Of a DNA stretch of 57,118 nt, positions 2,448 to 56,564 are shown in pieces. The first letter of the stretch is position 1; the number at the start of each line of letters is the position of its first letter. Source of the DNA: Deltaproteobacteria bacterium CG11_big_fil_rev_8_21_14_0_20_49_13. Its GTDB lineage: Bacteria > UBA10199 > GCA-002796325 > 1-14-0-20-49-13. The notes beneath the pieces were generated by a model that worked only from the letters and a program-made list of their open reading frames with translations, made no database searches and had not been told where the DNA came from. The stretch spans positions 1 through 57,118 of the forward strand of contig PCWZ01000049.1 in the NCBI GenBank assembly GCA_002796305.1. Direction: 5' to 3'. The position numbers and the translations under genes are program-made.

Positions 2448-3707
2448 ATGAAGAAGGCTATGGTTGCTATTATCGTGTTCCAGATGGTTCTTCCATATCG
2501 TCTATTTGCAGGAGGGATTACAGCAGTCATTGTCCCGGTCAAAGACGGAGTTTCCGACGATTCAACAGAAGAGATCGCCAACCTTTTTATGGAGGCGCTC
2601 TCAAAAAATGACATAGAGGTCATCTCGAAGGAAAAATCCGAGGCGGTGCTTAGTTATTACGACACAGCAGACAGCATTTCCGTTTCGGATCTATCTTCAG
2701 AAGCCGTAAAACTGATTTCGAAGGCAAAGGAACATTATTATAATTTTGATAGCGATTCCGCTTATGCAGAGGTCTCTCGCGCAATAGAGCTACTCAAAGG
2801 TGAGTCGGGTCGGACGCTCAGGGACGCCTACGTTACGGCCGCTATTATAGACAGGGCCAATGCTGAAGGATACCTGAGGTCGGCCCTTAAGATAGATCCT
2901 TTTTATGCAATAGATAGAAAAACGTTTCCGCCATCAACGGTCGATGCGTTTGATAGGGCAAGGTCCGAGATGGAGCGCCTTCCCACGGGCGAGATCCGTA
3001 TCGATACGGACCCTAAAGTTTGCGAAGTTTATATCAACGGGGTCATCCGTGGAGTTACCCCATTGGTGGTCTCAGAGCTCCCCGAGGGTGAGTATAAGAT
3101 CTTAATTAAAACCAATAAATATAGGCCGGTTGAGCGAATCGCTGCCGTCAGATCCGACGAAACGATAAAGATAAAGGAAAAACTGTACTGGGCGTCCGAA
3201 ATAAAGAAGGAGGCGCCGATCAAGAACCTTCTTACGTCCCAAGACGTCGCTCGCTCGGAAATAACCGAAGGAGTGAGAGTTGCCGAGATTCTTAAGGTTT
3301 CAAAGACGATCCTCATAGATGTTGACGAAGAAGCAGGTGGAAACGGAGAGGTTGCGATCAGGATGGTAGATAGAAAATATAAGGCGGGTCACAATCCTAT
3401 CGTTATCAGTTATGACCAGTCAAAGGACAATCTGTCACAAAACTTAAATTTAGCCGCCGAGAGCCTTATCTCGCAGACAAAGGTAAATATCTTGAGCGAT
3501 CCCCAAAAATATCTCGACCCAGATGGCGTGGGTGAGCCGGTGCTCTTGGGAAAACGCAAAAAGGAGCTCACAAAATCACCGGCATTCTGGGCGGTTCTGG
3601 GCGGCGTAGTTGCTGCAGGAGCCGGCGGCGCCGCCGCGGCGGTCATGCTTGGCGGAGGAGGGGGAGATAGCGAAGGGGCAGGAAGCGTTAACGTGCAGTT
3701 TAAATGA
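2448..3707 (+). CDS. PEGA-domain envelope protein (signal peptide, C-terminal Gly/Ala-rich membrane anchor)
   Basis: PEGA-like segment CEVYINGVIRGVTPLVVSELPEGEYKILIKTNKY, N-terminal hydrophobic leader, C-terminal FWAVLGGVVAAGAGGAAAAVML. Confidence 0.7.
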   Translation: MKKAMVAIIVFQMVLPYRLFAGGITAVIVPVKDGVSDDSTEEIANLFMEALSKNDIEVISKEKSEAVLSYYDTADSISVSDLSSEAVKLISKAKEHYYNFDSDSAYAEVSRAIELLKGESGRTLRDAYVTAAIIDRANAEGYLRSALKIDPFYAIDRKTFPPSTVDAFDRARSEMERLPTGEIRIDTDPKVCEVYINGVIRGVTPLVVSELPEGEYKILIKTNKYRPVERIAAVRSDETIKIKEKLYWASEIKKEAPIKNLLTSQDVARSEITEGVRVAEILKVSKTILIDVDEEAGGNGEVAIRMVDRKYKAGHNPIVISYDQSKDNLSQNLNLAAESLISQTKVNILSDPQKYLDPDGVGEPVLLGKRKKELTKSPAFWAVLGGVVAAGAGGAAAAVMLGGGGGDSEGAGSVNVQFK

Positions 3708-4456
3708 GTCGCTTAAAGGGGTTTATTATGAGTAGCGTTATTTTATTATTTGCAATTTTAATGATCGCTTCATGCGGCGGCAATTCCGGCAGTTCCAATA
3801 GCTCAACATATAGTTCAAATAATACAGGGACGATCAAGGCGATCGTTACGGGTTCCAAATCATTTAATCCCAATATCTCTCACGGCAAGATCGTTAAGTA
3901 TAAGATAACGATAACTGGTGAAGGCATAGAAGCGCCTGTTGTGGCCGAGATTGACGGAACCGCCGATTCTGGAACCGTTGAGGGCGTGCCTTCGGGTGAT
4001 GAAAGGACCGTCAGGGTCGAGGCGATAAATCCGAACGAGCTTTCCATAAGAGACGGCGAAGTAAGCGGCGTTCACGTTTCGTCGGGTGAAACCGAAGATG
4101 TAGAAATAACCCTAGAGTCGGTTCCGGTCTTCGCCAATATTAAGAGCGGGGCGTCTATCCCGAACACTCGTTTTATTGTGAGGGTCTTTTCGGATCCTAA
4201 GGATCCGGTGATGGTAGAGGACGAGTTTGGCGGATCCATAGCGGCCATGACGGATGTTAGCACCTCCGGTATTGAAATATCTCCGAACGTTGTAACTGGT
4301 ATCGCGTCAATCTCACCCGCGCTCCTTTCTGTGGGAGAACACAGTCTCACCGCAAAAAATTATCGAACCAACCGCTCTTCTAATGTCATCGTGAGGATAA
4401 TCGACGGTACAAAGCAAAAAGGCGCGCCGTTCTTCAGTGTGAAGGAGAATTTATGA
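3704..4456 (+). CDS. Lipoprotein of unknown function (beta-sandwich-like)
   Basis: Lipobox LMIASC after a positively charged N-terminus. ATGA overlap with the upstream gene. An alternative start exists at 3728. Confidence 0.65.
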   Translation: MSRLKGFIMSSVILLFAILMIASCGGNSGSSNSSTYSSNNTGTIKAIVTGSKSFNPNISHGKIVKYKITITGEGIEAPVVAEIDGTADSGTVEGVPSGDERTVRVEAINPNELSIRDGEVSGVHVSSGETEDVEITLESVPVFANIKSGASIPNTRFIVRVFSDPKDPVMVEDEFGGSIAAMTDVSTSGIEISPNVVTGIASISPALLSVGEHSLTAKNYRTNRSSNVIVRIIDGTKQKGAPFFSVKENL

Positions 4457-6222
4457 ACAAGAACGCCATTGCGGTCGTGATGTCGGCACTTTTAATATCG
4501 TGCGGAGGCTCAAACGGCGATGATGAGCTCGCGGACGAGCCCGCCCCGACCGGAGATGAATCCGCGTATTCTGAATCGATACCGACGGCCACACCGGATG
4601 CGGATAACGATTCTGTGTCGGATGAGAACGATAATTGCGTCAACACGGCCAACACGGACCAACTTGATACCGACGCCGACGGGAATGGCGATGCCTGTGA
4701 GAACGACGATGATGACGACGGCCTCGATGATACAAAAGAACAGGAATTTGGAACAGATCCTAAAAATAAAGATACTGACTTCGATGGAATGATCGACGGT
4801 TTGGAGATCAAGAACGGAACCGATCCCCTAAGGCAGGATACCGATTCGGACGATTATAGCGATAGTAAAGATGTGTTTCCGCTTGACGCCAAAGAATGGA
4901 GAGATTCCGATAATGATGGCGTTGGCGACAATAGCGATAATTGTAAAAGCGTTTCAAATCCCGGTCAGGAAAATACCGACAAGACCTACTCTATGGAGGG
5001 TGTCAAGGCCCCGGACGGGGATCTTGTGACAGCCGACAATCTTGGGGACGCCTGCGACGACGACATCGACGGCGACGGTCTGCACATAACCTATCTTGAT
5101 GCGGGTAACGGAAACGATTCGAGCTCCGGCACGTTTGTGGAACCGGTGACCGGCGTTAAGCGCGCCATCGAGCTGGCAAAGGTCCGAGGAGATGACGTCT
5201 ATGCAGTAGCGGGTTTCTATGATGTCTCAGGAGCAGAATTTACCGACGGAGTCGATCTATACGGAGGGTTTTCGGCCGAATTTACACAAAGAAGCGTTCT
5301 TGACGATCTGCCGCAATTTAAAACGACGCTTGGTAGAAGCGACCTTCCGGCAACGCTTTATTTTAAAGATCTAGAAGGACAGGTTAAGATCGACGGTTTC
5401 TTTGTGGTAAATAATGGCGACGATGACAGTGTTGCCGGGATCATACCTGATACGGACGATCTTGGATGCGACACGGCGGCCGCCTATATTGAAAATAGTA
5501 AAATAGAGCTCACGAATAATGTCATTGAAGGTAATAATAAAAGCCCAAGGTCCTGCGGAGTGATCCTTGGAAAGAATGCCGAAGTCAAGCTCAACGCCAA
5601 TAAGATAAGCGGGGGCGGTTCAAATAAGGCGACGCTTTCAATAGGCGTTGCGATTGTTGAGGCCCTTGCCAAGATCTACAATAATATCATCGTTGCCGGC
5701 AACGGTGAACATGCAACGGGGATAAAACTGACTTATTCGAACGCAACTATCATCAACAACACCATCGATTCGTCATCGTATGCCAAAAGCCCGAAGGTCT
5801 CTTCCGGCATCTCATTTAACGGCGGATCGCCGAAGATAATTAATAATCTGGTCTATACCTCTCTCTCAAAGGACCAGGCGGTTCTTTGGTGCCTCGGGAA
5901 CGACATGTCCGGAGCTGAGCTGAAGAACAATCTTTTCACCACATTCCCCCAAACGGGGACGAACGCGGCGCTTATAGACTGTGACGGGGAGTTCACGCTC
6001 ACATCGGAATATATCGGCGGCGCCGGTCTTTTCGTTCCGGGAACGATCGTTGGCGAGAACCTTTCCTATGAAGGCGGCTTGGATGGGCTTGTGGGGCCAT
6101 CCTATTTCCCGATAAGCAACGCTCTCGTGGATTCAGGCCTTAATGTTGAAAACGAAACCGATCTATATGGGGATCCAAGGCCGAACGGATCCGCAACGGA
6201 TGTGGGGGCCATAGAGAAATGA
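4453..6222 (+). CDS. Lipoprotein with thrombospondin type-3-like Ca-binding repeats and a parallel beta-helix-like C-terminal region
   Basis: Lipobox LLISCGG. Repeated DxDxDGxGDxCxND motifs (DTDADGNGDACENDDDDDG, DSDNDGVGDNSDNC, DDDIDGDG). Repetitive NN(I/V)I..N segments typical of right-handed beta-helices. RBS AAGGAGAA. Confidence 0.7.
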   Translation: MNKNAIAVVMSALLISCGGSNGDDELADEPAPTGDESAYSESIPTATPDADNDSVSDENDNCVNTANTDQLDTDADGNGDACENDDDDDGLDDTKEQEFGTDPKNKDTDFDGMIDGLEIKNGTDPLRQDTDSDDYSDSKDVFPLDAKEWRDSDNDGVGDNSDNCKSVSNPGQENTDKTYSMEGVKAPDGDLVTADNLGDACDDDIDGDGLHITYLDAGNGNDSSSGTFVEPVTGVKRAIELAKVRGDDVYAVAGFYDVSGAEFTDGVDLYGGFSAEFTQRSVLDDLPQFKTTLGRSDLPATLYFKDLEGQVKIDGFFVVNNGDDDSVAGIIPDTDDLGCDTAAAYIENSKIELTNNVIEGNNKSPRSCGVILGKNAEVKLNANKISGGGSNKATLSIGVAIVEALAKIYNNIIVAGNGEHATGIKLTYSNATIINNTIDSSSYAKSPKVSSGISFNGGSPKIINNLVYTSLSKDQAVLWCLGNDMSGAELKNNLFTTFPQTGTNAALIDCDGEFTLTSEYIGGAGLFVPGTIVGENLSYEGGLDGLVGPSYFPISNALVDSGLNVENETDLYGDPRPNGSATDVGAIEK

Positions 6223-6662
6223 GAAAGCTGTCATTCATAGCGGCGGCGGTAGCTCTTGCAGGATGTGCGAAGAGCGGCATTAATGTCCCGTCTTCATATA
6301 TGGGGGAGAGTAAGAGAGAGGCGGCGGCTCCCCCTGTGACCCGAGTCTATTTTCCGTTCGCAAGCGACGTCATCCTTCCAGCCGTCGAAAAAGAGCTGGA
6401 CCAGAACGTGTCATGGCTAAAAAGGAACAATGGGATCTATATTATCTTAGAAGGCCACTGCGACGAGGTCGGTCCTAAAGAATACAATATGGAGCTTGGC
6501 GACAGGCGTGCGCGCACGGTCAAGGCGTATCTAATGGAGATGGGTGTTGATCCGGAGCGGGTCATCATGCTCGTGAGTTACGGCTCCGAAAGACCCTTGA
6601 ACCCGGGACATAAGGTCGAAGACCTTCGCGAAAATAGAAGGGCCGAATTCGTCACTAGATAA
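6219..6662 (+). CDS. pal: Peptidoglycan-associated lipoprotein (Pal, OmpA C-terminal-like domain)
   Basis: Lipobox LAGC. VYFPFASD...ILEGHCDEVGPKEYNMELGDRRARTVKAYL...SYGSERP...NRRAEF matches the Pal/OmpA_C pattern. Confidence 0.85.
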   Translation: MRKLSFIAAAVALAGCAKSGINVPSSYMGESKREAAAPPVTRVYFPFASDVILPAVEKELDQNVSWLKRNNGIYIILEGHCDEVGPKEYNMELGDRRARTVKAYLMEMGVDPERVIMLVSYGSERPLNPGHKVEDLRENRRAEFVTR

Positions 6663-6676
6663 AATTGGAGGATCTT

Positions 6677-8134
6677 ATGAAATATGCGTTCCTTGTTTTG
6701 TTCTCCCTTGCGGCGCTTTTTATTTCTCCCATTTCCGGGGCAGAAGAGACAAGGCAGATACCTCTTCTTCTTAATTATCAGAGCGCCCTTTTCGATGAGG
6801 GTGGAAATCTGATCCAGGATGGCAGTACCGACTTCAGTTTCAGGATCATAGATCATGAAGGCAACATTCTCTATGAAGAGAACCAGCAACTGGATGTCGC
6901 AGATGGGAGGGTGAGCGCAATGATTGGAAATGGGCTTAGTGGCGGCGGGGCGGCAACGGGAGGGGTCCCTTCCGATATATTCGACCCGAATGGCCGACGG
7001 TTCCTGCAGGTAGAGATACCCGGCCAAAAGCCGTACGATAAGCTCGAGATAGTCTCCGTTCCGTATTCCCTCTGGTCCGAAAAAGCCCTTGGGCTGACGG
7101 AAGGCTCTCTAAAAGGAGAGATGATAGGGGGCGGGGTGATACTAAAAAGCCATCTTAGCGACGAACTCATTTCTTACATTGAGGATAACGGCACCCTTGG
7201 AAATTTTGTTAATAGCGTTCAGGGTTCGACGGGCGCTTCCAAGGTAGGGGTAGGCTCGACGTTTATTTACTCAGGCTCAAGCACGGTTCAGGGAGTGCTG
7301 AAGGACCTCGATGTTGCGATAAAAAAACGGCAGGAAGAGGTCGATTGGACAAAGGGCGATTACACGGCAAAGATCACGGGCGAGGCCACGGCGAGACAGG
7401 GCGCTGATACGACGCTTCAGGCCGGTCTAAACAGCGAATCTCTGGCGCGGTCTGCGGCAGACACGACGCTTCAATCGAGCATAACGGCAGAGACAGGCGA
7501 AAGATCGGGCGCAGACGCAGTGCTTCAGGCCAGCATAGATGAGCACGGTTCCGCAACTTCAACGCACGGAGCATCCGGCAATATCGTCGGAACCGATAAT
7601 AATCAGTATCTTTATAACAAGATATTGGTCGCGCCAAAGATCATAAGCGGAGCCAATGGCAATCCTGACGTCGGCGCCCAATTCGATATCTCGGTTGATG
7701 AAGGAATGGTCGTGGACGGTAATTTGGTAGTGACAGGTTATATACAATCGAAATCTGTAAAGGCGTTGTCTACACCTTCTTTTAGCGCGCCATCAGGGAG
7801 TACAGCGGAGAGATACATCTATCCCATTACGCTGATCGAAGACGACGACGGCGAGAGAGATACGGACCTCTTTACGATAGCTGATCTCGGTTCCAAAAAA
7901 ATATGGCTTGAATGGTTCATCAATGGTGTCGATGGAGATGAATACATTGAAATGATGGGAACCGCCGCCCTGCCAAGTGACGGCGATGTTGTGAGAAGTC
8001 CGATGAAGTGGGACGCTGGAAAGGCAAAGCTTAATGTGAGCGGAAACACTGTCAGGCTCCGATATGATGTGACCGGCGATAACAGAACTTTCGATATCGG
8101 CGGTTTTTTTAAGATCACAAGGGCTTTAGAATAA
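6677..8134 (+). CDS. Secreted tail-fibre-like / trimeric-fibre-like surface protein
   Basis: ATG at 6677 follows GGAGGA (the ORF track begins at a TTG at 6665). Signal peptide MKYAFLVLFSLAALFISPISGA. The N-terminal NYQS.L.D..GN...F.I module is common in tail-fibre-domain proteins. Three 18-aa tandem repeats E..AR..AD..LQ..I. Confidence 0.6.
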   Translation: MKYAFLVLFSLAALFISPISGAEETRQIPLLLNYQSALFDEGGNLIQDGSTDFSFRIIDHEGNILYEENQQLDVADGRVSAMIGNGLSGGGAATGGVPSDIFDPNGRRFLQVEIPGQKPYDKLEIVSVPYSLWSEKALGLTEGSLKGEMIGGGVILKSHLSDELISYIEDNGTLGNFVNSVQGSTGASKVGVGSTFIYSGSSTVQGVLKDLDVAIKKRQEEVDWTKGDYTAKITGEATARQGADTTLQAGLNSESLARSAADTTLQSSITAETGERSGADAVLQASIDEHGSATSTHGASGNIVGTDNNQYLYNKILVAPKIISGANGNPDVGAQFDISVDEGMVVDGNLVVTGYIQSKSVKALSTPSFSAPSGSTAERYIYPITLIEDDDGERDTDLFTIADLGSKKIWLEWFINGVDGDEYIEMMGTAALPSDGDVVRSPMKWDAGKAKLNVSGNTVRLRYDVTGDNRTFDIGGFFKITRALE

Positions 8135-8180
8135 AGCTCGCAATGGTTTCTTAAAAGAGAAACTAAGAAAGGGGAAAGAT

Positions 8181-9251
8181 ATGAAAAAGAGGATGATAGC
8201 AGGCGTGGTGGCGATGCTGTTCTGCACGGCGCTTGTTGCCGCATGCGGTAGCGCTACTTCCGATGTAACAGGAGGAGGCGTCGATAGTCCCGCCGACACC
8301 GGCACCGAAGGCGTTGCCGATGCTGATATTGTTCAAACAGTGCAGGCGCCCGTTCCGGGATCAGTTAAGGATTTTTTCGATGGCATTTGCTCAGATTATC
8401 GGCCGGTGCCTATCAAAAAAGATGAAGATTTGGCCGGTCAGACAGCCGCCTACGACGAGATCGTGGCCGAAGAGGATTGGGGGGGAGAGATAGCGGAAGG
8501 AACAAAATTGTATGTCGGTAATATCAACGGCGCCGTATTTGTTTACGGTACGAACGATACAGATAAAGCGTCTTGGGGTGTGAGAAAATGGGCGCTTGCC
8601 GAGACCGGTGAAGATTCAAAAAAAGGCCTGGGCAATATCCAGATATCCGCAGGGACAAAGGCCGATGAGGCCCGGGTCGTAGCGAATCATCCCGACAGCA
8701 GTTATCCAGGCGTCAGATATCAGACCTGCGTTGTTGTTAATACCCCGAGCTCTTGGGCGCAGTCACTTAAGAACGTCGCCGGTGATGTCTTTGTTTTCGA
8801 TGTCATGGGTACAGTGAAGGTGTCGAATGGAAACGGCAATATTAATGTTGGAGACGCCGGGGGGAATTCGGTAGAGATAGAGAACCAAAGCGGTAATATT
8901 GTTGTTAGTGCGCGCCCTTCCTCCGCCGTTAGCGTTCTGAACGGTTCCGGCAACATCACCTATCATCTGCTTGAAAGCACACATCTCAAGAACGACAGCT
9001 CGCTTGACACAAAAAACGGGACGATAAAGCTTGTCTTTAACGCAGGGACCGGCGCCAAATTGGATGCCCTGGTTGATGCCGGCACGATAAGCGCGCCCGA
9101 TCTCCCGGCTCCGGAGGCGGTGGACGCCAACGGACAGCGTCTGGTCGCGGATGTGAACGGCGGCGGCGCAAAACTGACGGCTCATTCCGAGACCGGAACG
9201 ATCACGGTTGAGTTGTTGAAGCCGCAGACTGATGCTGGCGAAACGGAATAA
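8181..9251 (+). CDS. Lipoprotein with DUF4097-like (putative adhesin) beta-helical repeats
   Basis: Lipobox LVAACGS. Repeated GNGNINV / SGNIVV / SGNITY / NGTIKL / TGTITV strands. Confidence 0.65.
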   Translation: MKKRMIAGVVAMLFCTALVAACGSATSDVTGGGVDSPADTGTEGVADADIVQTVQAPVPGSVKDFFDGICSDYRPVPIKKDEDLAGQTAAYDEIVAEEDWGGEIAEGTKLYVGNINGAVFVYGTNDTDKASWGVRKWALAETGEDSKKGLGNIQISAGTKADEARVVANHPDSSYPGVRYQTCVVVNTPSSWAQSLKNVAGDVFVFDVMGTVKVSNGNGNINVGDAGGNSVEIENQSGNIVVSARPSSAVSVLNGSGNITYHLLESTHLKNDSSLDTKNGTIKLVFNAGTGAKLDALVDAGTISAPDLPAPEAVDANGQRLVADVNGGGAKLTAHSETGTITVELLKPQTDAGETE

Positions 9252-9256
9252 AGACC

Positions 9257-10639
9257 ATGCGCCTTCCGCACAAGTTCGGCAAATATATCCTAGAGCTAAA
9301 GATAGCTCAGGGAGGGATGGCGGAGATCTACAAAGCAAAGTATGTGGGCGAGGGAGGATTCGAAAAAACGGTTGCCGTTAAACGGATCCTTCCCGTCTGG
9401 TCGGACAGCAAAGATTTTATAACGATGCTTTGCGATGAGGCCAAGGCGTTGGTACAGCTTCAGCATCAAAATATCGTTCAGGTGTATGAGCTGGGCAGAG
9501 ATAAAGACGTATTCTACATATCTATGGAATATGTGGATGGCGTGGATGTTAGAAGGCTGTTCAAAGCGGTTCAAGATAGTTCAAAGGTTACCGAATGGCC
9601 GCTCAAACTCACCTGTTTTATCGTTTCAGAGGTATTGAAGGCCCTCGATTTTTCGCATAATAAAAATTCAGGGATAGTTCACCGTGATATCAGCCCTCAG
9701 AACATCCTTGTTTCATTCAGCGGAGAGGTAAAGGTCGCCGATTTTGGCATTGCCAAGGGCTTTCACAGATCATTTGAAACCACCGCGCAACAGGTGAAAG
9801 GAAAATATGCCTACATGTCCCCCGAACAGGCAGGAGGAAAAGCGGTTGATGCGCGTACCGATATTTATTCTGTAGGCGTTATATTTTATGAGCTTCTGAC
9901 CGGCCAAAGGCTTTATGACGCGCCCAACGACCTCATGACGATCGAAGAGGTAAAACGATCGTCACTGCCAAACGGTTGGGGCAGAGAGATGGACACCGAA
10001 CTTAGAGAAATTATTATAAAGTCGCTAAAAAAAGATGTTTCGGAAAGATATCAGACGGCCAGAGAATTTTTAGATGACATAAATAGATATATTGTGTCTC
10101 ACGGTCTTGTCACCAATAGCATCGAGCTCTCCGGCGTGCTTCGCGGGTATTTTAAAGAGAATATTAAGCAGGCGCCATCTTTAGCAGACGACAAAAGAAA
10201 TGAGACCAAGGCCTTGAGCGTTGTCTCAAGAACCCCTCCCGAAAAGAAGGCGCTTGGCCTAAGATATGTGTATTCTATCTTGTTCATCATCCTTTCGGGA
10301 CTCTTTTTTAGTTTCAGCCCCCATTCAATTCGTTACACACCAGAACCGGTCCGAACGACCCCTACGATAGAGGAGAAGAAGGCGATCCCGTCTTCCATGC
10401 CAGCGACCCTAAGCGTTCAGGCGCGACCGTGGGGATATGTTTACATCCCGGGGCTCGTTGAGAGGAGAGAGACGCCCGTTCGTTCGGTAAAGGTGAGGCC
10501 GGGCGATTATACGCTCAAGGTAAATTTTGAACCAGAGAACAAGTGGGTGGAGAAGAAGATAATATTGTCTGGCGGCGAAAAGACGGCGTGTATGGCGGAC
10601 TTTACCAAAGGCACAACGCTTACCTGCATATCTAAATGA
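9257..10639 (+). CDS. Transmembrane Ser/Thr protein kinase with PEGA-like extracytoplasmic C-terminal domain
   Basis: Gly-loop AQGGMAEIY, VAVK, HRDISPQNIL, DFGIAK and YMSPEQ. TM segment YVYSILFIILSGLFFSF. C-terminal ATLSVQARPWGYVYIPG...VRPGDYTLKV. Confidence 0.85.
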   Translation: MRLPHKFGKYILELKIAQGGMAEIYKAKYVGEGGFEKTVAVKRILPVWSDSKDFITMLCDEAKALVQLQHQNIVQVYELGRDKDVFYISMEYVDGVDVRRLFKAVQDSSKVTEWPLKLTCFIVSEVLKALDFSHNKNSGIVHRDISPQNILVSFSGEVKVADFGIAKGFHRSFETTAQQVKGKYAYMSPEQAGGKAVDARTDIYSVGVIFYELLTGQRLYDAPNDLMTIEEVKRSSLPNGWGREMDTELREIIIKSLKKDVSERYQTAREFLDDINRYIVSHGLVTNSIELSGVLRGYFKENIKQAPSLADDKRNETKALSVVSRTPPEKKALGLRYVYSILFIILSGLFFSFSPHSIRYTPEPVRTTPTIEEKKAIPSSMPATLSVQARPWGYVYIPGLVERRETPVRSVKVRPGDYTLKVNFEPENKWVEKKIILSGGEKTACMADFTKGTTLTCISK

Positions 10640-19563: not shown

Positions 19564-19606
19564 AGTCGAAAGGCCAGCTGTTTACACAGCCGGCCTTTCG
19601 ACTTTG
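19564..19606 (-). terminator. Intrinsic terminator downstream of the tRNA
   Basis: Minus strand reads AAAGTCGAAAGGCC-loop-GGCCTTTCGACTTTT (12-bp stem plus T-run). Confidence 0.65.
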
Positions 19607-19678
19607 TGGGCCTCGAGGGACTCGAACCCCCAGCCAACCGGTTATGAGCCGGTAGCTCTACCATTGAGCTAGAGGCCC
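19607..19678 (-). tRNA. tRNA with CAU anticodon (elongator Met, or Ile2/lysidine type)
   Basis: Manual cloverleaf: GGGCCTC/TA/GCTC-AATGGTA-GAGC/T/ACCGG-CTCATAA-CCGGT/TGGCT/GGGGG-TTCGAGT-CCCTC/GAGGCCC-A. G1-C72 is paired, so it is not an initiator. CCA is not encoded. Confidence 0.85.
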
Positions 19679-20567: not shown

Positions 20568-21548
20568 ATGGAACCCACAAAGAACTTTAACACAACGCCC
20601 GGCATGGCCGGAGAGAATTTTGACGATTTCAAGGCGCCGCTGTTTCTTGCGTGGCAGATAAATTCCGTCTGCAACCTTGGATGCCTCCACTGTTGCGAAG
20701 AGGCCGGCCACCACATTCCGGGAGAGATGACAAGGGATCAAATTTTCACTTTCCTGCATCAGGTCCGCGAGATGGGGATCCCTTACGTTGCCATATCCGG
20801 CGGCGAGCCGCTTCTGCATCCCAACTTCTTCGAAGTGGCAGAGTTCATCCGCGAAGCCGGAATGAGCCTAAAGGTCGAGACCAACGGAGAGTTCATCGAC
20901 GACAAGGTCGTTGATCGTTTTGCCGCGCTCGATTTTAGGTCGGTCCAAATAAGCCTCGATGGCGCGACCGCCGCCACCCATGAGGTCCTGCGTTTAAAGG
21001 GTGACTGGAAAAAATCTTATACCGCCGTAAAAAAACTGGTGGAAAAGGGCGTGACAACGGAGATAGTATTCGTGCCGACAAGTTTTAATATCCATGAAGT
21101 GGGCGAGGCGATAGACATGGCCCATGACCTTGGCTGCTACGGATTTTATACAGGCAAGATAATGCGCATCGGGCGTGCCGCGCTTAACTGGGATAAGTTG
21201 AATCCTACCGAAGAACAATACAAGGCCTTCTTTAAGACCCTCGACGAAAAAACAAAACAATACGAGAACAAGATGAAGGTCTATTACTATCCGTACGATG
21301 TCATCGAAGAGCTCAAATATAGATTGGAAAAGCCATCGGCGAGCCTCTTGGTCGTTCCTAACGGCAATACTAAATTAATAGGGCCGCTTCCCTTTATCTG
21401 CGGCAATGTTAAGGAACAATCGCTTGCGGAAGTTTGGGAACGTTACAAAAAGGCGTGGCGCGAACCCAAGGTCATCGAATTCACAAAGAGGGTCATAAAG
21501 GATCCCAACCTCCTCGCCCAATCAAATAAATGGCAAAACGTATTTTAA
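20568..21548 (+). CDS. Radical SAM enzyme, PqqE/MftC-like peptide-modifying type, with a Cys-poor (truncated SPASM-like) C-terminus
   Basis: CNLGCLHC (CX3CX2C), ISGGEPLL, and a C-terminal PFICGNVKEQSLAEVW resembling the start of a SPASM/Twitch domain. No CX2CX5CX3C motif. Confidence 0.8.
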   Translation: MEPTKNFNTTPGMAGENFDDFKAPLFLAWQINSVCNLGCLHCCEEAGHHIPGEMTRDQIFTFLHQVREMGIPYVAISGGEPLLHPNFFEVAEFIREAGMSLKVETNGEFIDDKVVDRFAALDFRSVQISLDGATAATHEVLRLKGDWKKSYTAVKKLVEKGVTTEIVFVPTSFNIHEVGEAIDMAHDLGCYGFYTGKIMRIGRAALNWDKLNPTEEQYKAFFKTLDEKTKQYENKMKVYYYPYDVIEELKYRLEKPSASLLVVPNGNTKLIGPLPFICGNVKEQSLAEVWERYKKAWREPKVIEFTKRVIKDPNLLAQSNKWQNVF

Positions 21549-22393
21549 GGTTCGTCCGTTACCGTTTTCTGCTATTTGCAGGCCTTCTGCCATATTGCCT
21601 TGGCGCCGTCATTTCGAGGCATAGCGTTCAAGCGTTCGACCTTAAACTCTTTCTTATAGGCCTTGTCGGCATATTTTTTACGCTCGTCGGAGTAGAGGCC
21701 TTCAACGAGTATTTCGACTGGGTGCTGGGGACCGACAGGGTCTTTCAGTTGAACCCAAAGCCTGTCACAAAAAAAAAGTTCTATATAGGTGTTGGGGCCT
21801 TCTTTATAGCCCTTTTGTTCGCGGTATATCTTACATGGCAGGTTGGGGCCGGCATTGCCATTTTTGCCTTGGTCGGTTTTATTGCGGCGGCCGGTTATCT
21901 TGGTCCGCCACTACGGTTCACGTACCGAGGACTTGGCGAGATCGTCATCGCCATTTCGTATGGCCCCGCCATGGTGCTTGGTAGCTACTACCTGCAGACC
22001 GGCCGGATAGATCTGCTTCCGGTCGTTGCATCAGCGTTACCGGCCATCTTTTTATTCTTAATAGCGATAATGAACGAGGTGCCCGATTTTCTGCAGGATA
22101 GCCTTGTCGGCAAGAGGAATATATGCGTAAGGAGCGGCAGGGAAGGGACGGTAACCATATACGGCTTGATGTCGGTCGTTCTCTACATAACTTTGACGCT
22201 GATGGTAATTATTGATCTGTTGCCAAAGATCTCCCTTCTTATCTTGCTAACCATCCCTTTTATGTGGCGCAACTATTACACCGCCAGAACTATGCTGGAG
22301 GAGCCTCCGAATCTGTTCGGTGCTATACGCGGGACCCTGATAGTTTACATCGTTTCCATGGGCGTTCTTATTGTCTCTTACTTGCAAAATTAA
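21530..22393 (+). CDS. UbiA-superfamily (MenA-like) aromatic prenyltransferase, polytopic membrane protein
   Basis: NEYFDWVLGTD (compare MenA NDYFDxxxGxD) and NEVPDFLQDSLVGKRN (compare NNxRDxxxDxxxGKxT). About 8-9 hydrophobic helices. 19-nt overlap with the radical SAM gene. Confidence 0.8.
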   Translation: MAKRILRFVRYRFLLFAGLLPYCLGAVISRHSVQAFDLKLFLIGLVGIFFTLVGVEAFNEYFDWVLGTDRVFQLNPKPVTKKKFYIGVGAFFIALLFAVYLTWQVGAGIAIFALVGFIAAAGYLGPPLRFTYRGLGEIVIAISYGPAMVLGSYYLQTGRIDLLPVVASALPAIFLFLIAIMNEVPDFLQDSLVGKRNICVRSGREGTVTIYGLMSVVLYITLTLMVIIDLLPKISLLILLTIPFMWRNYYTARTMLEEPPNLFGAIRGTLIVYIVSMGVLIVSYLQN

Positions 22394-24000: not shown

Positions 24001-24463
24001 ATGAACGGAGGGCCTTTTACGCGGTCGCCGTCCGCCTTTGGCGGATGGAGGAAAGTCCGGGCTTTAAAGAGCGCCGTAGCGGATAACGTCCGCCATCTCG
24101 ATGAAAATCGGGAGAGGAACAGTGCCACAGAGACGAGTCTTGTCCGGGGACACACACTTAATTCAAGAAGTGTGAATTAATTGTGTGTCCCCGGATGAGG
24201 GTGAAACGAGGTAAACTCTACGGAAAGCAAGGCCAAGCAGGGACACGGGTTGCTCGCCCGTCCGATCCGGCAACGGAGAGGACAATCCCGGGTAGGCCGC
24301 TACTATCTTTATCAGTAACCGCCTTTGCCGCAAGGCTTTGAGCGAGTCAAGCGCTAGCGTTGGTAAAGATGACGAGATGCGAGGCAACTTTGCACCCCAG
24401 ATGAATGATCGCACCCCGGAAGGGGATACAGAACCCGGCTTATTAAAGGCCTTCCGTTCATTT
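24001..24463 (+). ncRNA. rnpB: RNase P RNA, bacterial type A
   Basis: GGAGGAAAGTCCGGGC (P4 5' strand), CAGTGCCACAGAGAC, GGGTGAAACGAGGTAA, and ACAGAACCCGGCTTA (P4 3' strand). P1 pairs ATGAACGGAGGGCCTTT with AAAGGCCTTCCGTTCAT. T-run after the 3' end. Confidence 0.9.
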
Positions 24464-52209: not shown

Positions 52210-54567
52210 TTATCTTAATACCGCGTTTGGGTGGTCTACGGCGAATGAATTGCCGCCGTTCATTGTAGATATGGCGGTGTATGTCTTCTGCAGGAGTTGA
52301 ACGGCGAACGCGACGTTGTGAATACCTACGCTCCCGTCATTAGCTATCAAATTATGATCAAAGACCGCCCTCCTCACGTCAATAGGGCTTGCGTTCTGTT
52401 TAGCCTGCGAGGCGTAGGTAAGACCGGCGACCGTTATCGTTCCGTCGGCAGCCTGCGTTGTGCCCGCGGCGACGTTCACTGTGTCTATGGATTTAATCTT
52501 ATTGGTAAGGGCAAGTAGCAACCCCTTGTTCTCGTCCTGGATGCCGCCAATAGTTCCATTACCATCATAATCGGCGCGCGCGGTTCGGTTAAGGGAGGTC
52601 AAGCCTGTATGACACGGCGTACATGTGGCGGTAAACTCGTTCCCGCCACTAGACATCGCCCACGTGTGCCCGCCAAGCGTCCTATATCCGGCCTCTTCTG
52701 CGGTTGGGGCGGTCCCCATGTGACAGGTCACACATTTATTATTTTCGCTTGATTTTGATGCGTCGCCGGAGCCGTTCGCCAGCGTGAACAGGCTCGATGA
52801 ATGGAATGAATTCTCTGTGAGCGTAAAATCGTATGAACTGTTCGAGAAATGCGTGACGGCGCCAAGGCCTTCCAGCACAAAGGACTGCGGATTATGATGG
52901 ATCTGGCGGAAATACTGCGTTGCAAGCTGATCTATCGTTTCGCATGCCACATCGGCTGTACCGTCACCGTTGGAATCGCAGTCTATCTCGCCCTTGACAT
53001 AATAGCCATCATGACATGTGTAACAGACCGCCGCCTCGCCGGCATCTACCTGTGTCCCTGCATCATCTAACATTGTAACAACACCTTTGCGCCGCAACTG
53101 TGTTGAGTTGTTGCCGCTTACGGAAGGGAGCCCCGTCATCGGATCGGCCGCCGTGGAATGTGGGTCGTGACATGCCTGGCAGCTGACACCGACATCGTTA
53201 GATGTCTGGGCGGTGACCGTGTCGCCTTCGACATATTGAATAAACCCGGCCGTTGTATGACAACGGGCACACCCGGCGCCGGGCCACGAGGACAGGCGAT
53301 ATCTACCGGCGTTGTTCTTTATGCCCGTTTCATTATGTGCCGCAACCTTCCATTCCGCCTCTTGTGAATGGCATTTGCCGCAGATACCTGAATCCCATTT
53401 GCTAAAGGCAATTCGCGAGGCGTCACCATTATGATCGGCGCCGGGGCCATGACAATTTTCACACTGCACATTAGTTAAGGGTGCAAGTGTCGGATTATCA
53501 CTTATGAACTGATCCCATGTGGTCCCGGTAGAAGGAAAACTGTAACCGGCGTCCGTTACAAGGTCATCGAAACCGCCGTTAACCGCCGTCGCCGCCGTGT
53601 CATATCCCACCGTATGGCATTCCCAGCAATATGGTTGCGGGGCCTTTGACTTATAAGAGCCTGTCGCCTTCTGGAAGATAACGGAATGGCCGGTCTCCTC
53701 CCATTCGGACGTGGTGTCGGGTTCTTCCGTCCCATTATGGCAGGCCCCGCACTGGCCGACGCTTTCGTCAGGTGTTGTTCCATCTATCGTTCCCGCCCCG
53801 ACATATGTGCTCGCAGTGACCGTGATCGCGCCGTTCGTGGCGGCTGATACTGATGTGTAAGCTATCGTATAGACACCATCGATATCGGGTGTAAAATTGG
53901 GGATCTCAAGCGCCGAATTAAGATTTCCGGTGTCTTCAAATATCGCCGAAGACCCTGCCGCAGGCGTGAGTGTCCATGTCCAGTCGGTAACAGCTGTGCT
54001 TGCCGTGCTTGAGTTGGCTTTGAGTGAGGGGCCGGCAAGATAGACCTTTTCACCGACACCGACATTTGTAAGACCGGTGGTGGTCCTTATTTCGTTGCCG
54101 GCATCAAAAAGATAGACCGTAAATGTCGTGATGCCGGAATTATTATTTGCGTCTGTCGCCGTCAGTCGAAATATCAATACCGCATCATCGCGTGATACCG
54201 GCAGCGCCTGCCAGCGATACTGATCTGATGCATTTAAAATCGCCGGCATTGCGGGTGCGCCGAACGTGAACGTCTGTGATACGGCGTCACCTGCAACCGT
54301 AACCGCCGGACCCGATATCTGCTCCCATTCATATCCTGTTATAGCGCTACCATCTGCAGTACTGCTCGTCGCGCCTGAAAGTATCAGGCCGGCGGCACTG
54401 AAATTTGCCTTGTAGGCCGCTTGTGAGTGATAGGTGAACGTGTCGATACCGGTGCTGGCGGTTATCGCCGCGGTCACGTTGTTTGCCGGAGTCTCGCTCC
54501 CGGATGAACATGCACAAAAGAACGCCAATTGCAGAACAAAGATCGCTAAAATAATTCTTTTGAACAT
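52210..54567 (-). CDS. Large nonahaem c-type cytochrome lipoprotein with N-terminal Ig/PKD-like domains
   Basis: Nine CxxCH motifs (CGACH, CWECH, CENCH, CGKCH, CARCH, CQACH, CYTCH, CVTCH, CTPCH). Leader MFKRIILAIFVLQLAFFCAC. The start at 54567 forms TGATG coupling with the upstream stop (the ORF-track start is 54594). Confidence 0.8.
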   Translation of the reverse strand: MFKRIILAIFVLQLAFFCACSSGSETPANNVTAAITASTGIDTFTYHSQAAYKANFSAAGLILSGATSSTADGSAITGYEWEQISGPAVTVAGDAVSQTFTFGAPAMPAILNASDQYRWQALPVSRDDAVLIFRLTATDANNNSGITTFTVYLFDAGNEIRTTTGLTNVGVGEKVYLAGPSLKANSSTASTAVTDWTWTLTPAAGSSAIFEDTGNLNSALEIPNFTPDIDGVYTIAYTSVSAATNGAITVTASTYVGAGTIDGTTPDESVGQCGACHNGTEEPDTTSEWEETGHSVIFQKATGSYKSKAPQPYCWECHTVGYDTAATAVNGGFDDLVTDAGYSFPSTGTTWDQFISDNPTLAPLTNVQCENCHGPGADHNGDASRIAFSKWDSGICGKCHSQEAEWKVAAHNETGIKNNAGRYRLSSWPGAGCARCHTTAGFIQYVEGDTVTAQTSNDVGVSCQACHDPHSTAADPMTGLPSVSGNNSTQLRRKGVVTMLDDAGTQVDAGEAAVCYTCHDGYYVKGEIDCDSNGDGTADVACETIDQLATQYFRQIHHNPQSFVLEGLGAVTHFSNSSYDFTLTENSFHSSSLFTLANGSGDASKSSENNKCVTCHMGTAPTAEEAGYRTLGGHTWAMSSGGNEFTATCTPCHTGLTSLNRTARADYDGNGTIGGIQDENKGLLLALTNKIKSIDTVNVAAGTTQAADGTITVAGLTYASQAKQNASPIDVRRAVFDHNLIANDGSVGIHNVAFAVQLLQKTYTAISTMNGGNSFAVDHPNAVLR

Positions 54568-54866
54568 CACTCTACCCCATTGGTGCCGTGACAAGAGGCA
54601 CAGCTGGAAAGCCCTTCTGTCTCCGTCATATGTCTTATCGCGGCAAGATTTAGACCTGTGCCGGTGCGGTCGTTCTGGTGGATATTATCTAGGTTGTGGC
54701 AGTCAAAGCAGGTGGATTTCCCCCAACCCGTCGTGTGCTCTGCCTGAGTTAAGAGTAGCCCTGCATCCGTTCCGGCAAGGTCGCCGTAGTCCTCGCCCTG
54801 AATGGTTTCCTGACTCCCGCAACCGGCGAGCATTACAAAAAGGGCTATGAACATAAATATCTTCAT
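54567..54866 (-). CDS. Small dihaem c-type cytochrome lipoprotein
   Basis: Lipobox MLAGCGS. CFDCH and CASCH motifs. Confidence 0.75.
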   Translation of the reverse strand: MKIFMFIALFVMLAGCGSQETIQGEDYGDLAGTDAGLLLTQAEHTTGWGKSTCFDCHNLDNIHQNDRTGTGLNLAAIRHMTETEGLSSCASCHGTNGVE

Positions 54867-54872
54867 AATGAC

Positions 54873-55214
54873 CTAGCGCGGATTTGAATGGCAATCCCTG
54901 CAGAAAACGATCTTGTGACACTGATCGCACTTTCTGGGGTTCGCCCGCGCCTCGACCGAATGATAGAACATGTAATTTCTTTTGTGCACCCTCTGCTGGA
55001 TGCTGTCCCTTCTCTCGTGACAGTCTATGCAGAACCACGGCTTGTGACACGACCTGCAAGAAGACGATTCTATCTTGGCTGTTGACTGATGCATCTGGGC
55101 CCAGCCGGCATCGTGAGATTCCGGCATGCCGGCGCTCTTTTCGGGATCGAGCGCAAACGCCGCACTGCAGACAAAAGACGCCAAGAATATCAACACTATT
55201 TTTTTATATCTCAT
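54873..55214 (-). CDS. Small periplasmic tetrahaem c-type cytochrome (paired CxxCH motifs)
   Basis: Signal peptide, then CRSCH-x4-CIDCH and CDQCH-x4-CRDCH. Confidence 0.75.
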   Translation of the reverse strand: MRYKKIVLIFLASFVCSAAFALDPEKSAGMPESHDAGWAQMHQSTAKIESSSCRSCHKPWFCIDCHERRDSIQQRVHKRNYMFYHSVEARANPRKCDQCHKIVFCRDCHSNPR

Positions 55215-56511
55215 GGAACCGCCTGTCTATCCTTTTGCTTCTTTTGTTCGGGGTGTAGTCGCTGCTCGTCAGGCCTATCTCAAGGTCCACCGTAAGTCTT
55301 GCGTCTCTGTTGAACCATTGGTTGTGGTTCAACTCTCCGCCCAGAGAAAGCTTGCTTATCTTATTGAACCAGTAGGCGACCCCTCCCACAAGACTTGTTG
55401 CCGTGTCGCTCTGTCCGGTTATCTTCTTATAATTAGAGAGGTCAAAGTCCAGATACCCTGCCCATTTTTCGCGATATCTTGCATCCAGCGCCAGGTATCC
55501 GCCATAGACATGACCGCCGTAGCTCTTCAGATAATAGAACTTCGCAAGGGTTGAAAGTTTTGCCCGCTCAAAATAGTTGTCGACGCCGAGATCAAAGAGA
55601 TAACCATTCTTTGGATTAAGGTTCCTTGGAGTATATCTCAGACAAGAAAGATCTTCAAAGATGTGAAGGTTCTTCATTATCTTGACCCTTGCGTTCGCGC
55701 TCCCTTCCATGATCCTTCCGGTAAAATAGTCCGCAAAGATCGTCTCGTATGCGGAGCTCCTGCTCACGTTGTAGTAGTTGCCGTCGAACGCCAGCGCTAA
55801 CCGCCAGTGCGGATATAGTTGCAGACCAAGGGTCCCGGTATCTACGACCTTTCCCGCGACATCACCTTCAATGTTGCCGTAGAGGTTCGGCGTTGCCCAT
55901 GCATCGCTGAACCTGTGCGAGGCATCAAGCCCCAAAAATATCGTATCGTTCCAGCCCCAATCGCTTACCACGGCATCTGCCTTGCGCCATCTTGCGGCAA
56001 ATCTTGCGGAGGTGTCTTTTACGTTTTGAAGATTAACGGCGGTCCCTACGAGAAGACCTTCCTCGCCTTGAGTGACATTTCCCTCTTCATAATAATGATT
56101 TCCGCCGGCATATACCGAAAAGTTAAGATATCCGCTATCAGGCGTGACCGAGAGCTTGAGGCCGTCGAGAAGGGCAACGTCAAAGGCCTCGGAGAGCCAC
56201 TGCCTGCCCCCCTCTATCTTAAGTGATTCAACCGGTTCGATGTACAGGACCGCCTGATAGAGGTCGAACTGATAAGAATCCCTTTCGTCATTTATAAAAA
56301 CTTTAAAATCAGTTTGAAATGAGGATTCTACCGGCAGTTTTGAGAGGCCAAGGCTAAAATATTGGTTTGTCGGCGCCTCATAACCGACAAATCGGCCCTT
56401 TTTTACCTGAGAAAGATTTCTGTAGCTAAAGTCCCATCCGGCAAAGGCTTGAATAGGATAGACGAGAAGAACTAAAAGCGCAACGAGTGCAACGTTTCTT
56501 TTATCCCCCAT
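55204..56511 (-). CDS. Outer-membrane beta-barrel (porin-like) protein heading the cytochrome cluster
   Basis: ATG at 56511 (the ORF track starts at a TTG at 56523). Signal peptide VALVALLVLLVYPIQAFA. Many alternating aromatic/hydrophobic strands (YLFDLGVDNYF, GGYLALDARY, LVGGVAYWF). Confidence 0.65.
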   Translation of the reverse strand: MGDKRNVALVALLVLLVYPIQAFAGWDFSYRNLSQVKKGRFVGYEAPTNQYFSLGLSKLPVESSFQTDFKVFINDERDSYQFDLYQAVLYIEPVESLKIEGGRQWLSEAFDVALLDGLKLSVTPDSGYLNFSVYAGGNHYYEEGNVTQGEEGLLVGTAVNLQNVKDTSARFAARWRKADAVVSDWGWNDTIFLGLDASHRFSDAWATPNLYGNIEGDVAGKVVDTGTLGLQLYPHWRLALAFDGNYYNVSRSSAYETIFADYFTGRIMEGSANARVKIMKNLHIFEDLSCLRYTPRNLNPKNGYLFDLGVDNYFERAKLSTLAKFYYLKSYGGHVYGGYLALDARYREKWAGYLDFDLSNYKKITGQSDTATSLVGGVAYWFNKISKLSLGGELNHNQWFNRDARLTVDLEIGLTSSDYTPNKRSKRIDRRFHEI

Positions 56512-56564
56512 TAGGGACAACAATTAACATTATATTTTCGATAAGTCAATAAATGTGAGGGGCT

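Follow-up and report, generated by a model that had tools for sequence, protein, structure and literature searches.

A gene cluster from uncultured groundwater bacteria encodes a candidate outer-membrane electron conduit with an OcwA-like cytochrome

Outer-membrane electron conduits control the redox cycling of iron, manganese and humic matter in aquifers, and they supply a parts list for bioelectronics. To our knowledge the Mtr complex is the only one with a solved structure, and we know of genetic studies on only a few Geobacter systems. The Mtr barrel, MtrB, has 26 strands in ~700 amino acids (aa), and the ten haems of its decahaem partner MtrA span ~80 Å. Jimenez Otero et al. (2018, PMC6148476) recognise such a conduit by three elements, namely a multihaem cytochrome in the periplasm, a barrel that is integral to the outer membrane, and redox lipoproteins. 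Here we describe a four-gene cluster at positions 52210-56523 of contig PCWZ01000049.1 from Deltaproteobacteria bacterium CG11_big_fil_rev_8_21_14_0_20_49_13, a stretch of 57,118 nucleotides (nt) that was analysed whole and is called the window below. The cluster encodes a beta-barrel, a small tetrahaem cytochrome, a dihaem lipoprotein and a nonahaem lipoprotein. These four genes probably specify an electron conduit of the porin-cytochrome type across the outer membrane, and one that belongs to a new family.

In the Geobacter Pcc and Ext systems different surface cytochromes accompany a barrel and a periplasmic partner that stay conserved (PMC6148476; Shi et al. 2014), and the periplasmic Pcc components carry 5-14 haems (Shi et al. 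2014). A second point of reference is OcwA (PDB 6I5B), a nine-haem protein that serves the Gram-positive bacterium Thermincola potens as terminal Fe(III) reductase at the cell surface, together with OmhA (6QVM), its 11-haem counterpart in Carboxydothermus ferrireducens (structure identities from Table 1 of PMC9250108). Gavrilov et al. found OcwA grouped in one subclade with nonahaem proteins of Gram-negative origin. Furthermore, a preprint (bioRxiv 10.64898/2026.05.27.727921) reports four divergent clusters of porins and multihaem cytochromes, EET1-EET4, in peat Acidobacteriota and Verrucomicrobiota. According to the accessible part of that preprint these are syntenic porin-cytochrome clusters without sequence kinship to Mtr or Omc proteins, some of them with OcwA-like surface cytochromes; the lineages differ from those considered here, and the same part of the text describes no core of a tetrahaem cytochrome and a dihaem lipoprotein. 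The general idea is already in the literature, and what is new here is an uncharacterised core of barrel, minimal tetrahaem cytochrome and dihaem lipoprotein, combined with an OcwA-type cap.

The four open reading frames (ORFs) of the cluster are co-directional on the minus strand and run from 56511 to 52210. The first encodes the outer-membrane beta-barrel (55204-56511; 435 aa from an ATG, or 439 aa from an alternative TTG start at 56523). It overlaps by 11 nt the gene for a periplasmic tetrahaem cytochrome c of 113 aa, ~92 aa when mature (54873-55214), which is followed after a gap of 6 nt by the gene for a 99-aa dihaem lipoprotein (54567-54866). The stop codon of the latter is joined in the sequence TGATG to the start of the last gene, which encodes an OcwA-like nonahaem lipoprotein of 785 aa from an ATG (52210-54567). 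The four proteins contain 15 CxxCH motifs in 1432 aa, against ~0.003 expected by chance, and no such motif is found in the 49 other long ORFs of the window. The initial annotation of this DNA had listed the four genes with their sizes, overlaps, order and 15 haem motifs; all of these are present in the sequence, and the four-gene observation is confirmed.

All three elements of the conduit definition are found at the locus. The 113-aa protein, with a Sec-type signal and four CxxCH motifs, represents the periplasmic multihaem cytochrome, and the integral outer-membrane beta-sheet protein is represented by the barrel, for which AlphaFold2 predicts 22 strands. The redox lipoproteins are represented by the 99-aa protein (lipobox LAGC, two haems) and the 785-aa protein (lipobox-like FCAC, nine haems). 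The order of barrel, periplasmic cytochrome and lipoprotein cytochrome is that of ombB-omaB-omcB in Geobacter, a comparison already drawn when the cluster was first noticed; it stands, as an analogy, for gene order and logic. The presence of two lipoprotein cytochromes is also a feature of ExtABCD.

The barrel protein begins with a signal peptide (residues 1-24, ending QAFA/G), continues with the barrel domain (residues 25-415, nt 55267-56439, minus strand), ends in a conserved basic tail (residues 416-435, 55207-55266, minus strand) and contains no Cys-rich motifs. With an alignment of 60 sequences, AlphaFold2 modelled residues 25-415 as 22 antiparallel strands (pLDDT 91, pTM 0.82). This model supersedes an earlier run with only 7 sequences, which reached pLDDT 49 and left the middle third unmodelled. 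The proposal that the protein is a beta-barrel is therefore supported by its predicted structure, and 22 strands were predicted instead of the 8-12 of a small barrel, a size that would speak against a conduit. Comparison of the model with the PDB by Foldseek returned outer-membrane barrels exclusively: the best matches were the 24-strand usher pores FimD and PapC (TM about 0.5-0.56), followed by the 18-strand AlgE, OccK and MOMP and then by 16-strand porins. MtrB was not found among the best 50 fold matches. The strand count places the protein in the size class of the Pcc and Ext barrels (18-22 predicted for Pcc, 18 for ExtB, 21 for ExtE and ExtI). From the geometry relation for n = 22 and an assumed shear number of ~24, the C-alpha diameter of the predicted barrel would be ~40 Å. 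TonB-dependent receptors belong to the ~40 Å size class, and their lumen holds a plug domain of ~150 residues.

The basic tail carries the motif YTPxKRSKRxxRRFHEI, which is modelled as a low-confidence helix and is conserved in the closest clade only; the tetrahaem gene starts within the stretch that encodes it. The tail could contact a cytochrome or peptidoglycan.

Searches of Pfam, NCBIfam and PDB sequences with the barrel and 60 relatives gave no match, in keeping with the earlier remark that no close family could be recognised for it. A word-indexed search of 5.8 billion proteins returned only 7 clusters, at 42-100% identity, and an exhaustive hidden Markov model (HMM) search of 1.84 billion representatives returned 135 clusters, 87 of them at E <= 1e-10 and nearly all 400-450 aa long. 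The deep alignments A3 and A4 are without any conserved stretch of 7-10 residues; a further protein search with profile A3 found 7 proteins, and a locus search with the tighter alignment A5 found only 7 metagenome loci. When 20 family members were sampled, all came from metagenome-assembled genomes (MAGs) or raw metagenomes, those named in their source were called "hypothetical protein", and the organism labels were Deltaproteobacteria, Bdellovibrionales/Pseudobdellovibrionaceae or simply "bacterium"; neither isolates nor Desulfuromonadales occurred among the 20. A pattern scan of 185,579 GTDB species representatives, tuned to close relatives, found two loci, both in Deltaproteobacteria-labelled groundwater MAGs. 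The source MAGs derive from groundwater and aquifers.

One short public metagenome contig (L011 1-1214, JGI contig Ga0065180_10059849) is 100% identical to the C-terminal part of the window barrel, and its tetrahaem and (cut) dihaem ORFs give the same HMM scores as those of the window. The identical match and the equal scores indicate that the same organism or strain was sampled independently.

Since no sampled member comes from an isolate or from Desulfuromonadales and no curated model matches, the evidence argues, indirectly, against close kinship to OmbB, ExtB, ExtE or ExtI. A relationship to MtrCAB, MtoAB and PioAB was also considered. These systems work by the principle proposed here, a barrel-sheathed cytochrome contacted by a surface lipoprotein cytochrome, and in this functional sense the resemblance to MtrCAB suggested by the initial annotation holds; it does not extend to barrel family, strand number (22 versus 26) or cytochrome families, and membership of the Mtr group was rejected on all three counts. 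Neither the MtrB_PioB models (PF11854, TIGR03509) nor the MtrB chain in the PDB matched the barrel or 60 members of its family. With TIGR03508, for decahaem periplasmic cytochromes of the MtrA/DmsE family, the nonahaem protein scored 33.5 bits against a cut-off of 192. With TIGR03507, for the MtrC/OmcA family of surface decahaem proteins, the dihaem lipoprotein scored 16 bits against a cut-off of 209, and the nonahaem protein was not matched; its one link here is a generic, domain-level match of 49 bits to PF22113.

The tetrahaem cytochrome has a Sec-type signal peptide ending AAFA/L and no lipobox, and its four CxxCH motifs are arranged as two CxxCH-x4-CxxCH pairs. In an alignment of barrel-adjacent cytochromes with 4, 7 or 9 haems, the four CxxCH motifs, H34, H42, H77 and H85 are invariant, as is an RR/AR-x2-P signature. 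Judged from this alignment, the four invariant histidines and the four CxxCH motifs probably provide exactly enough ligands for four bis-His haems. The 113-aa protein of the window is the minimal version among the aligned periplasmic partners. The 7-haem relatives have an added N-terminal triheme domain of the c7 type and PDB matches to the Geobacter dodecahaem protein 3ov0, and the single 9-haem relative has an added C-terminal extension.

The dihaem lipoprotein carries a canonical lipobox (L-A-G-C16), two CxxCH motifs and the further motifs GEDYGDL, H44-x2-GW, NIH63 and a C-terminal CxxCHGxNG. The lipid-anchor Cys, H-x2-GW, NIH, CxxCHGxNG and the haem motifs are conserved across the alignment of its family, for which no relative was found in the PDB. 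In an ortholog at L008 (5854-6204) the first haem site has CFDCR in place of CFDCH, owing to a sequencing error or to the loss of a haem ligand. At L018 the called genes omit a dihaem-lipoprotein ORF (7582-7911, HMM E = 1e-31) that follows a 7-haem cytochrome downstream; gene callers may overlook such small parts of a conduit.

To follow co-occurrence, genomic contexts were collected across the barrel family and every locus was searched with HMMs for the four components, which left 12 non-redundant barrel modules (barrel identity 24-100%) with enough downstream sequence. In 12/12 modules the next gene after the barrel, usually overlapping the barrel stop, encodes a cytochrome with the tetrahaem core, and in 10/12 a dihaem lipoprotein of ~100 aa comes after it. 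Several of these detections concern sequences outside the HMM seed sets, namely those at L010, L014, L016, L017, L018, L019 and L020 for the core and at L014, L016, L017 and L018 for the dihaem lipoprotein. Relatives with barrels 42-52% identical share the same four-gene order. The large cytochrome is not conserved with the barrel: OcwA-like nonahaem proteins are restricted to the closest clade, which consists of the window, L005, L008 and the P0007 type, and the other modules have large cytochromes with 10 haems (734-783 aa), 7 haems (400 aa) or 15-16 haems (632 aa). One contig, L004, holds two paralogous conduit modules. By these sequence comparisons, barrel, tetrahaem core and dihaem lipoprotein form a conserved, co-evolving core, and the surface cytochrome is interchangeable.

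This modular rule resembles that of the Pcc and Ext modules, which likewise combine a constant barrel and periplasmic partner with an exchanged surface cytochrome, and three differences stand beside it. The periplasmic cytochrome of the window has 4 haems, compared with 8 in OmaB and 12 in ExtA and ExtG, and lies outside the Pcc range of 5-14; distant members of the barrel family have periplasmic partners with 7 or 9. The dihaem lipoprotein of ~100 aa, a conserved core part here, has no described Pcc/Ext counterpart. Finally, the surface cytochrome is OcwA-like and not OmcB-like.

The nonahaem protein begins with a signal peptide and a lipobox-like F-C-A-C20 (residues 1-20, AFFCAC20/SSGS, 54508-54567), and its orthologs have the canonical lipoboxes LAGC, AVSC and LSAC at the same place. 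Two PKD/Ig-like domains follow (about residues 30-260, 53788-54480), then the nine-haem core (residues 266-670, 52558-53772), with CxxCH motifs at residues 273, 314, 369, 396, 433, 463, 515, 612 and 649, and a C-terminal region with DYDGxG and DGSxGIHN motifs (residues 671-785, 52213-52557; all minus strand). The two N-terminal domains had been proposed from the sequence, and profile matches agree with this: a profile search detected a PKD domain of KIAA0319L (E = 6e-6) and collagenase PKD domains, and the Pfam model K319L-like_PKD matched residues 63-151 weakly, below its cut-off.

More than 754 homologs of the nonahaem protein are detectable. The close ones are 58-68% identical, ~780 aa long and from Deltaproteobacteria-labelled MAGs, and a second tier at 39-47% identity has 850-1000 aa and extra PKD-like domains. 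Fusions to T9SS sorting domains are frequent among the distant homologs (~30%), in Calditrichaeota, KSB1, Rhodothermales and Latescibacteria, which suggests display at the cell surface. Across 42 homologs eight of the nine haem motifs are fully invariant; for the exception, haem 2, only H318 is listed, as nearly invariant. H750 and N751 are invariant in the same set.

A profile built from these 42 homologs matched OcwA (6I5B) at E = 3.6e-24 and OmhA (6QVM) at E = 4.4e-18, ahead of NrfA (2J7A, E = 1.7e-10) and MccA (4RKM, E = 1e-6). In local alignments OcwA haems 1, 3-4, 5-6 and 7-9 are placed colinearly on the nonahaem protein, with a score of 85 for the fragment holding haems 7-9 versus 46 +/- 7 for shuffles, and the fragment with OcwA haem 2 has no unambiguous anchor. 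IHH557-558 after haem 7 aligns with the VHH of OcwA (H380/H381, near the open haem of its C-terminal module), H557 being nearly invariant in the 42 homologs, and a CxxCH-M motif (CVTCHM) at haem 8 is common to both proteins. In HMMER domain 6 the C-terminus (DGSxGIHNxxxAVQLL) aligns in sequence with OcwA residues 447-499, and the helical C-terminus of OcwA and NrfA is its putative counterpart. Both proteins have nine haem motifs, and they share the CxxCH-M and HH motifs as well as the C-terminal DGSxGxHN region. The protein differs from OcwA in being a predicted diderm lipoprotein with two PKD-like domains and a ~100-aa insertion between haems 7 and 8, in its genetic coupling to a barrel and small cytochromes, and in lacking the first HH pair at the aligned site: where OcwA has H281/H282, near the open haem of its N-terminal module, the sequence reads CGKCH-SQEAEW, and the sole His there is the haem-4 ligand, though a structural equivalent may lie elsewhere.

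On this evidence the nonahaem protein belongs, by sequence, to the NrfA/c554/MccA superfamily and is closest among solved structures to OcwA and OmhA. An NrfA-type nitrite reductase was considered and rejected: the protein contains no CxxCK motif, it scored 11.5 bits with PRK11125 against a cut-off of 595, and OcwA and OmhA are much closer. Clear homology to a soluble periplasmic enzyme would have favoured a different role for the cluster; the closest proteins of solved structure are instead the surface cytochromes OcwA and OmhA, and the superfamily kinship with NrfA and MccA is nonetheless real.

The insertion relative to OcwA, of ~100 residues (about residues 517-622, 52700-53020, minus strand), holds a Cys pair around an Asp-rich loop, CDSNGDGTADVAC. 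After haem 9, in the DYDGxG motif at residues 666-671, D666 and G671 are invariant in the 42 homologs and Y667, D668 and G669 nearly so. From their sequences both elements look like calcium-binding or disulfide-stabilised loops.

Relatives of the cluster have a respiratory neighbourhood. The barrels of L005 and L008 share 52% and 51% identity with that of the window, and at both loci the four genes run directly into genes for a 148-aa membrane-anchored tetrahaem protein, a 4Fe-4S protein with a TAT signal and a membrane protein of the NrfD family. L008 additionally has Rieske and cytochrome b genes and a gene for a divergent 11-haem c-type cytochrome fused to a cytochrome b561 domain, an architecture that we take to be like that of Geobacter CbcL. 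NrfD, Fer4 and multihaem genes also lie near the barrel of L010, a true but distant family member at 24% identity. At L023 a 447-aa barrel that is a remote relative (hhalign 89%) is accompanied by NrfD and Fer4 genes on the opposite strand, and the barrel of L009 is likewise remote, with an hhalign probability of 94% to the barrel family; both of these barrels lie beside more distant nonahaem homologs. Genes for cytochrome c maturation (Ccm) lie near L009, L018 and L023. A 637-aa neighbour of a nonahaem homolog from Limisphaerales was rejected as a barrel relative (hhalign probability 0.2%, unrelated); as far as this comparison reaches, the barrels of the EET1-EET4 clusters also differ from the present family. 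The Desulfovibrio ferrophilus clusters DFE_0448-0451 and 0461-0465 were set aside as a different design, with NHL beta-propeller proteins and no porin.

We propose a model in which the 22-strand barrel would form a sheath, ~40 Å wide between C-alpha atoms, and the tetrahaem cytochrome, with its four probable bis-His haems, would enter the lumen from the periplasm. The dihaem lipoprotein would dock at the barrel and extend the chain to six haems. If distances are scaled from MtrA, four haems would reach ~30-35 Å and six ~50 Å, and the latter would be enough for crossing the membrane. A short reach with four haems and a sufficient one with six would explain why the dihaem lipoprotein is conserved with the barrel while surface cytochromes vary. 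The dihaem lipoprotein would then hand electrons to the lipid-anchored OcwA-like nonahaem cytochrome, held off the membrane by its PKD stalk, and at the surface this protein would reduce an acceptor unable to enter the cell, such as Fe(III) or Mn(IV) minerals, humic matter or a partner cell. The electrons would be supplied by an inner-membrane quinol oxidoreductase encoded elsewhere in the genome. We infer complex formation, insertion into the lumen, the membrane side of the lipoproteins, the direction of flow and the substrate.

The conduit interpretation is supported by the three-element architecture, the tight gene coupling, the co-evolution of the core, the kinship with OcwA, the respiratory neighbours and the groundwater source, and neither a small barrel nor a clearly soluble enzyme emerged from the analysis. 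Several observations weigh on the other side. The barrel family is confined to uncultured organisms throughout. The four haems of the periplasmic component are fewer than in any described Pcc counterpart. The window encodes no inner-membrane quinol oxidoreductase or other cytochrome, which implies that the inner-membrane half is encoded elsewhere in the genome, none of the respiratory or Ccm genes seen near the relatives lies in it, and no recognisable system for lipoprotein export to the surface is obvious in it. A nonahaem homolog that is 60% identical (L007 8001-10352) has no barrel or small cytochromes within 8 kb; its neighbours are CBS-domain genes, genes for cytochrome bd oxidase and a PhoU/Pst phosphate cluster; the surface cytochrome is thus not always encoded with the conduit core. 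Moreover, OcwA reduces nitrite and hydroxylamine in vitro, so a catalytic role is possible.

The same complex could also work inwards, as MtoAB and PioAB do. It would then oxidise Fe(II), Mn(II) or a reduced mineral outside the cell, or draw on a partner cell, and the electrons would be delivered to carriers in the periplasm, to a bc-type complex and to a terminal oxidase. This is a serious alternative, although we consider it unlikely. Conduits are reversible in principle, as the pair MtrCAB and MtoAB/PioAB illustrates (PMC6148476), and the bd oxidase genes beside the L007 homolog, the Rieske and cytochrome b genes of L008 and the groundwater habitat would all suit electron uptake. The sequence does not fix the direction. 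Net outward flow, that is respiration, is preferred because OcwA and OmhA, the closest relatives that have been characterised, reduce Fe(III) and because the NrfCD-type and CbcL-like modules of the relatives resemble the quinol-oxidising modules of metal reducers; in addition, no carbon-fixation or Cyc2-type genes lie nearby.

A rather improbable alternative involves no wire at all. The barrel would then be a solute channel for an oxyanion or other small substrate, and the cytochromes would make up a membrane-tethered reductase chain facing the periplasm, with the nonahaem protein as its enzyme; nitrite, hydroxylamine, sulfur species, selenite and tellurite are examples of what such a chain might reduce. 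Its membership of the NrfA/MccA/c554 superfamily is consistent with this, as are the two open-coordination haems of OcwA with their in vitro activity on nitrite and hydroxylamine, and the HH pair of the second open haem of OcwA is conserved in the nonahaem protein. Geobacter ExtI has likewise been linked to selenite and tellurite reduction (PMC6148476). The absence of CxxCK and an OcwA kcat for nitrite of only 1 per minute argue against an enzyme of this kind, and 22 strands are far above the 16-18 of solute porins. A solute channel would also leave the strict coupling of barrel and minimal tetrahaem core across the family hard to explain, and the PKD stalks and T9SS-sorted homologs point to surface display.

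It is very improbable that the main task of the barrel is to export the lipoprotein cytochromes and hold them at the surface, as a dedicated translocon or anchor, while electrons cross by another route: the usher pores as best fold matches, the want of a recognisable surface-lipoprotein export system in the window and the conserved basic tail would fit, but TM-scores of ~0.5 reflect barrel size and not homology, the plug and periplasmic domains of ushers are absent from the 435-aa protein, and the invariant partner is a non-lipoprotein periplasmic tetrahaem cytochrome that needs no export.

We tentatively suggest, with more doubt than confidence, that barrel, tetrahaem cytochrome and dihaem lipoprotein are an independently evolved minimal wire in which the lipoprotein acts as a universal adaptor for exchangeable surface cytochromes. 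If so, outer-membrane conduits would have arisen independently once more, in addition to the Mtr, Pcc/Ext and Cyc2 types, and this one, with six haems split over two tiny proteins, would be the smallest known. Among the surface cytochromes plugged into it would be the OcwA type, which had been characterised only on Gram-positive cells. The genetic link between OcwA-type reductases of Gram-positive bacteria and a diderm conduit bears on how cytochromes move between envelope types. The compactness of the system, with a barrel of ~410 residues and cytochromes of ~92 aa and 84 aa, should make it tractable for structure determination and heterologous expression. The system also follows a clear modular rule, a conserved three-part core with an exchangeable surface cytochrome. 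It supplies HMM-ready markers for a groundwater lineage that has not been cultured and would probably escape the iron-gene annotation models in current use, the barrel having no match in Pfam or NCBIfam.

The cluster is flanked by housekeeping genes, queF upstream and convergent genes for a beta-eliminating lyase, RidA and an OPT transporter downstream, and its G+C content is not distinctive. The barrel gene lies 53 nt from queF (56512-56564), and a sigma-70 consensus scan of this gap gave no match. TTGACT and TATAAT both occur in it, but 9 nt apart. Transcription of the four genes may be by read-through from queF, may start within queF or may depend on another type of promoter. No terminator-like site was found near the operon ends, and no Rfam family inside or adjoining the four genes.

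Elsewhere in the window, a radical-SAM gene and an overlapping gene for a UbiA-family prenyltransferase (20568-22393, plus strand) encode proteins whose N-termini are near-identical to those of a pair on L004 (8227-10082). The L004 pair, together with a PqqD-like gene, sits between the two paralogous conduit modules of that contig. A link between this gene pair and the conduit, for example in cofactor or quinone modification, is possible. The window also contains a bacterial class A RNase P RNA (24009-24457, plus strand, 153 bits) and a tRNA-Met (CAT) gene (19606-19678, minus strand), with no other Rfam RNA families reported in it. A run of genes at 2448-10639 (plus strand) encodes secreted proteins or lipoproteins, including a PEGA-domain protein and a thrombospondin type 3 repeat protein, and is followed by an ORF whose N-terminus resembles a Ser/Thr protein kinase.

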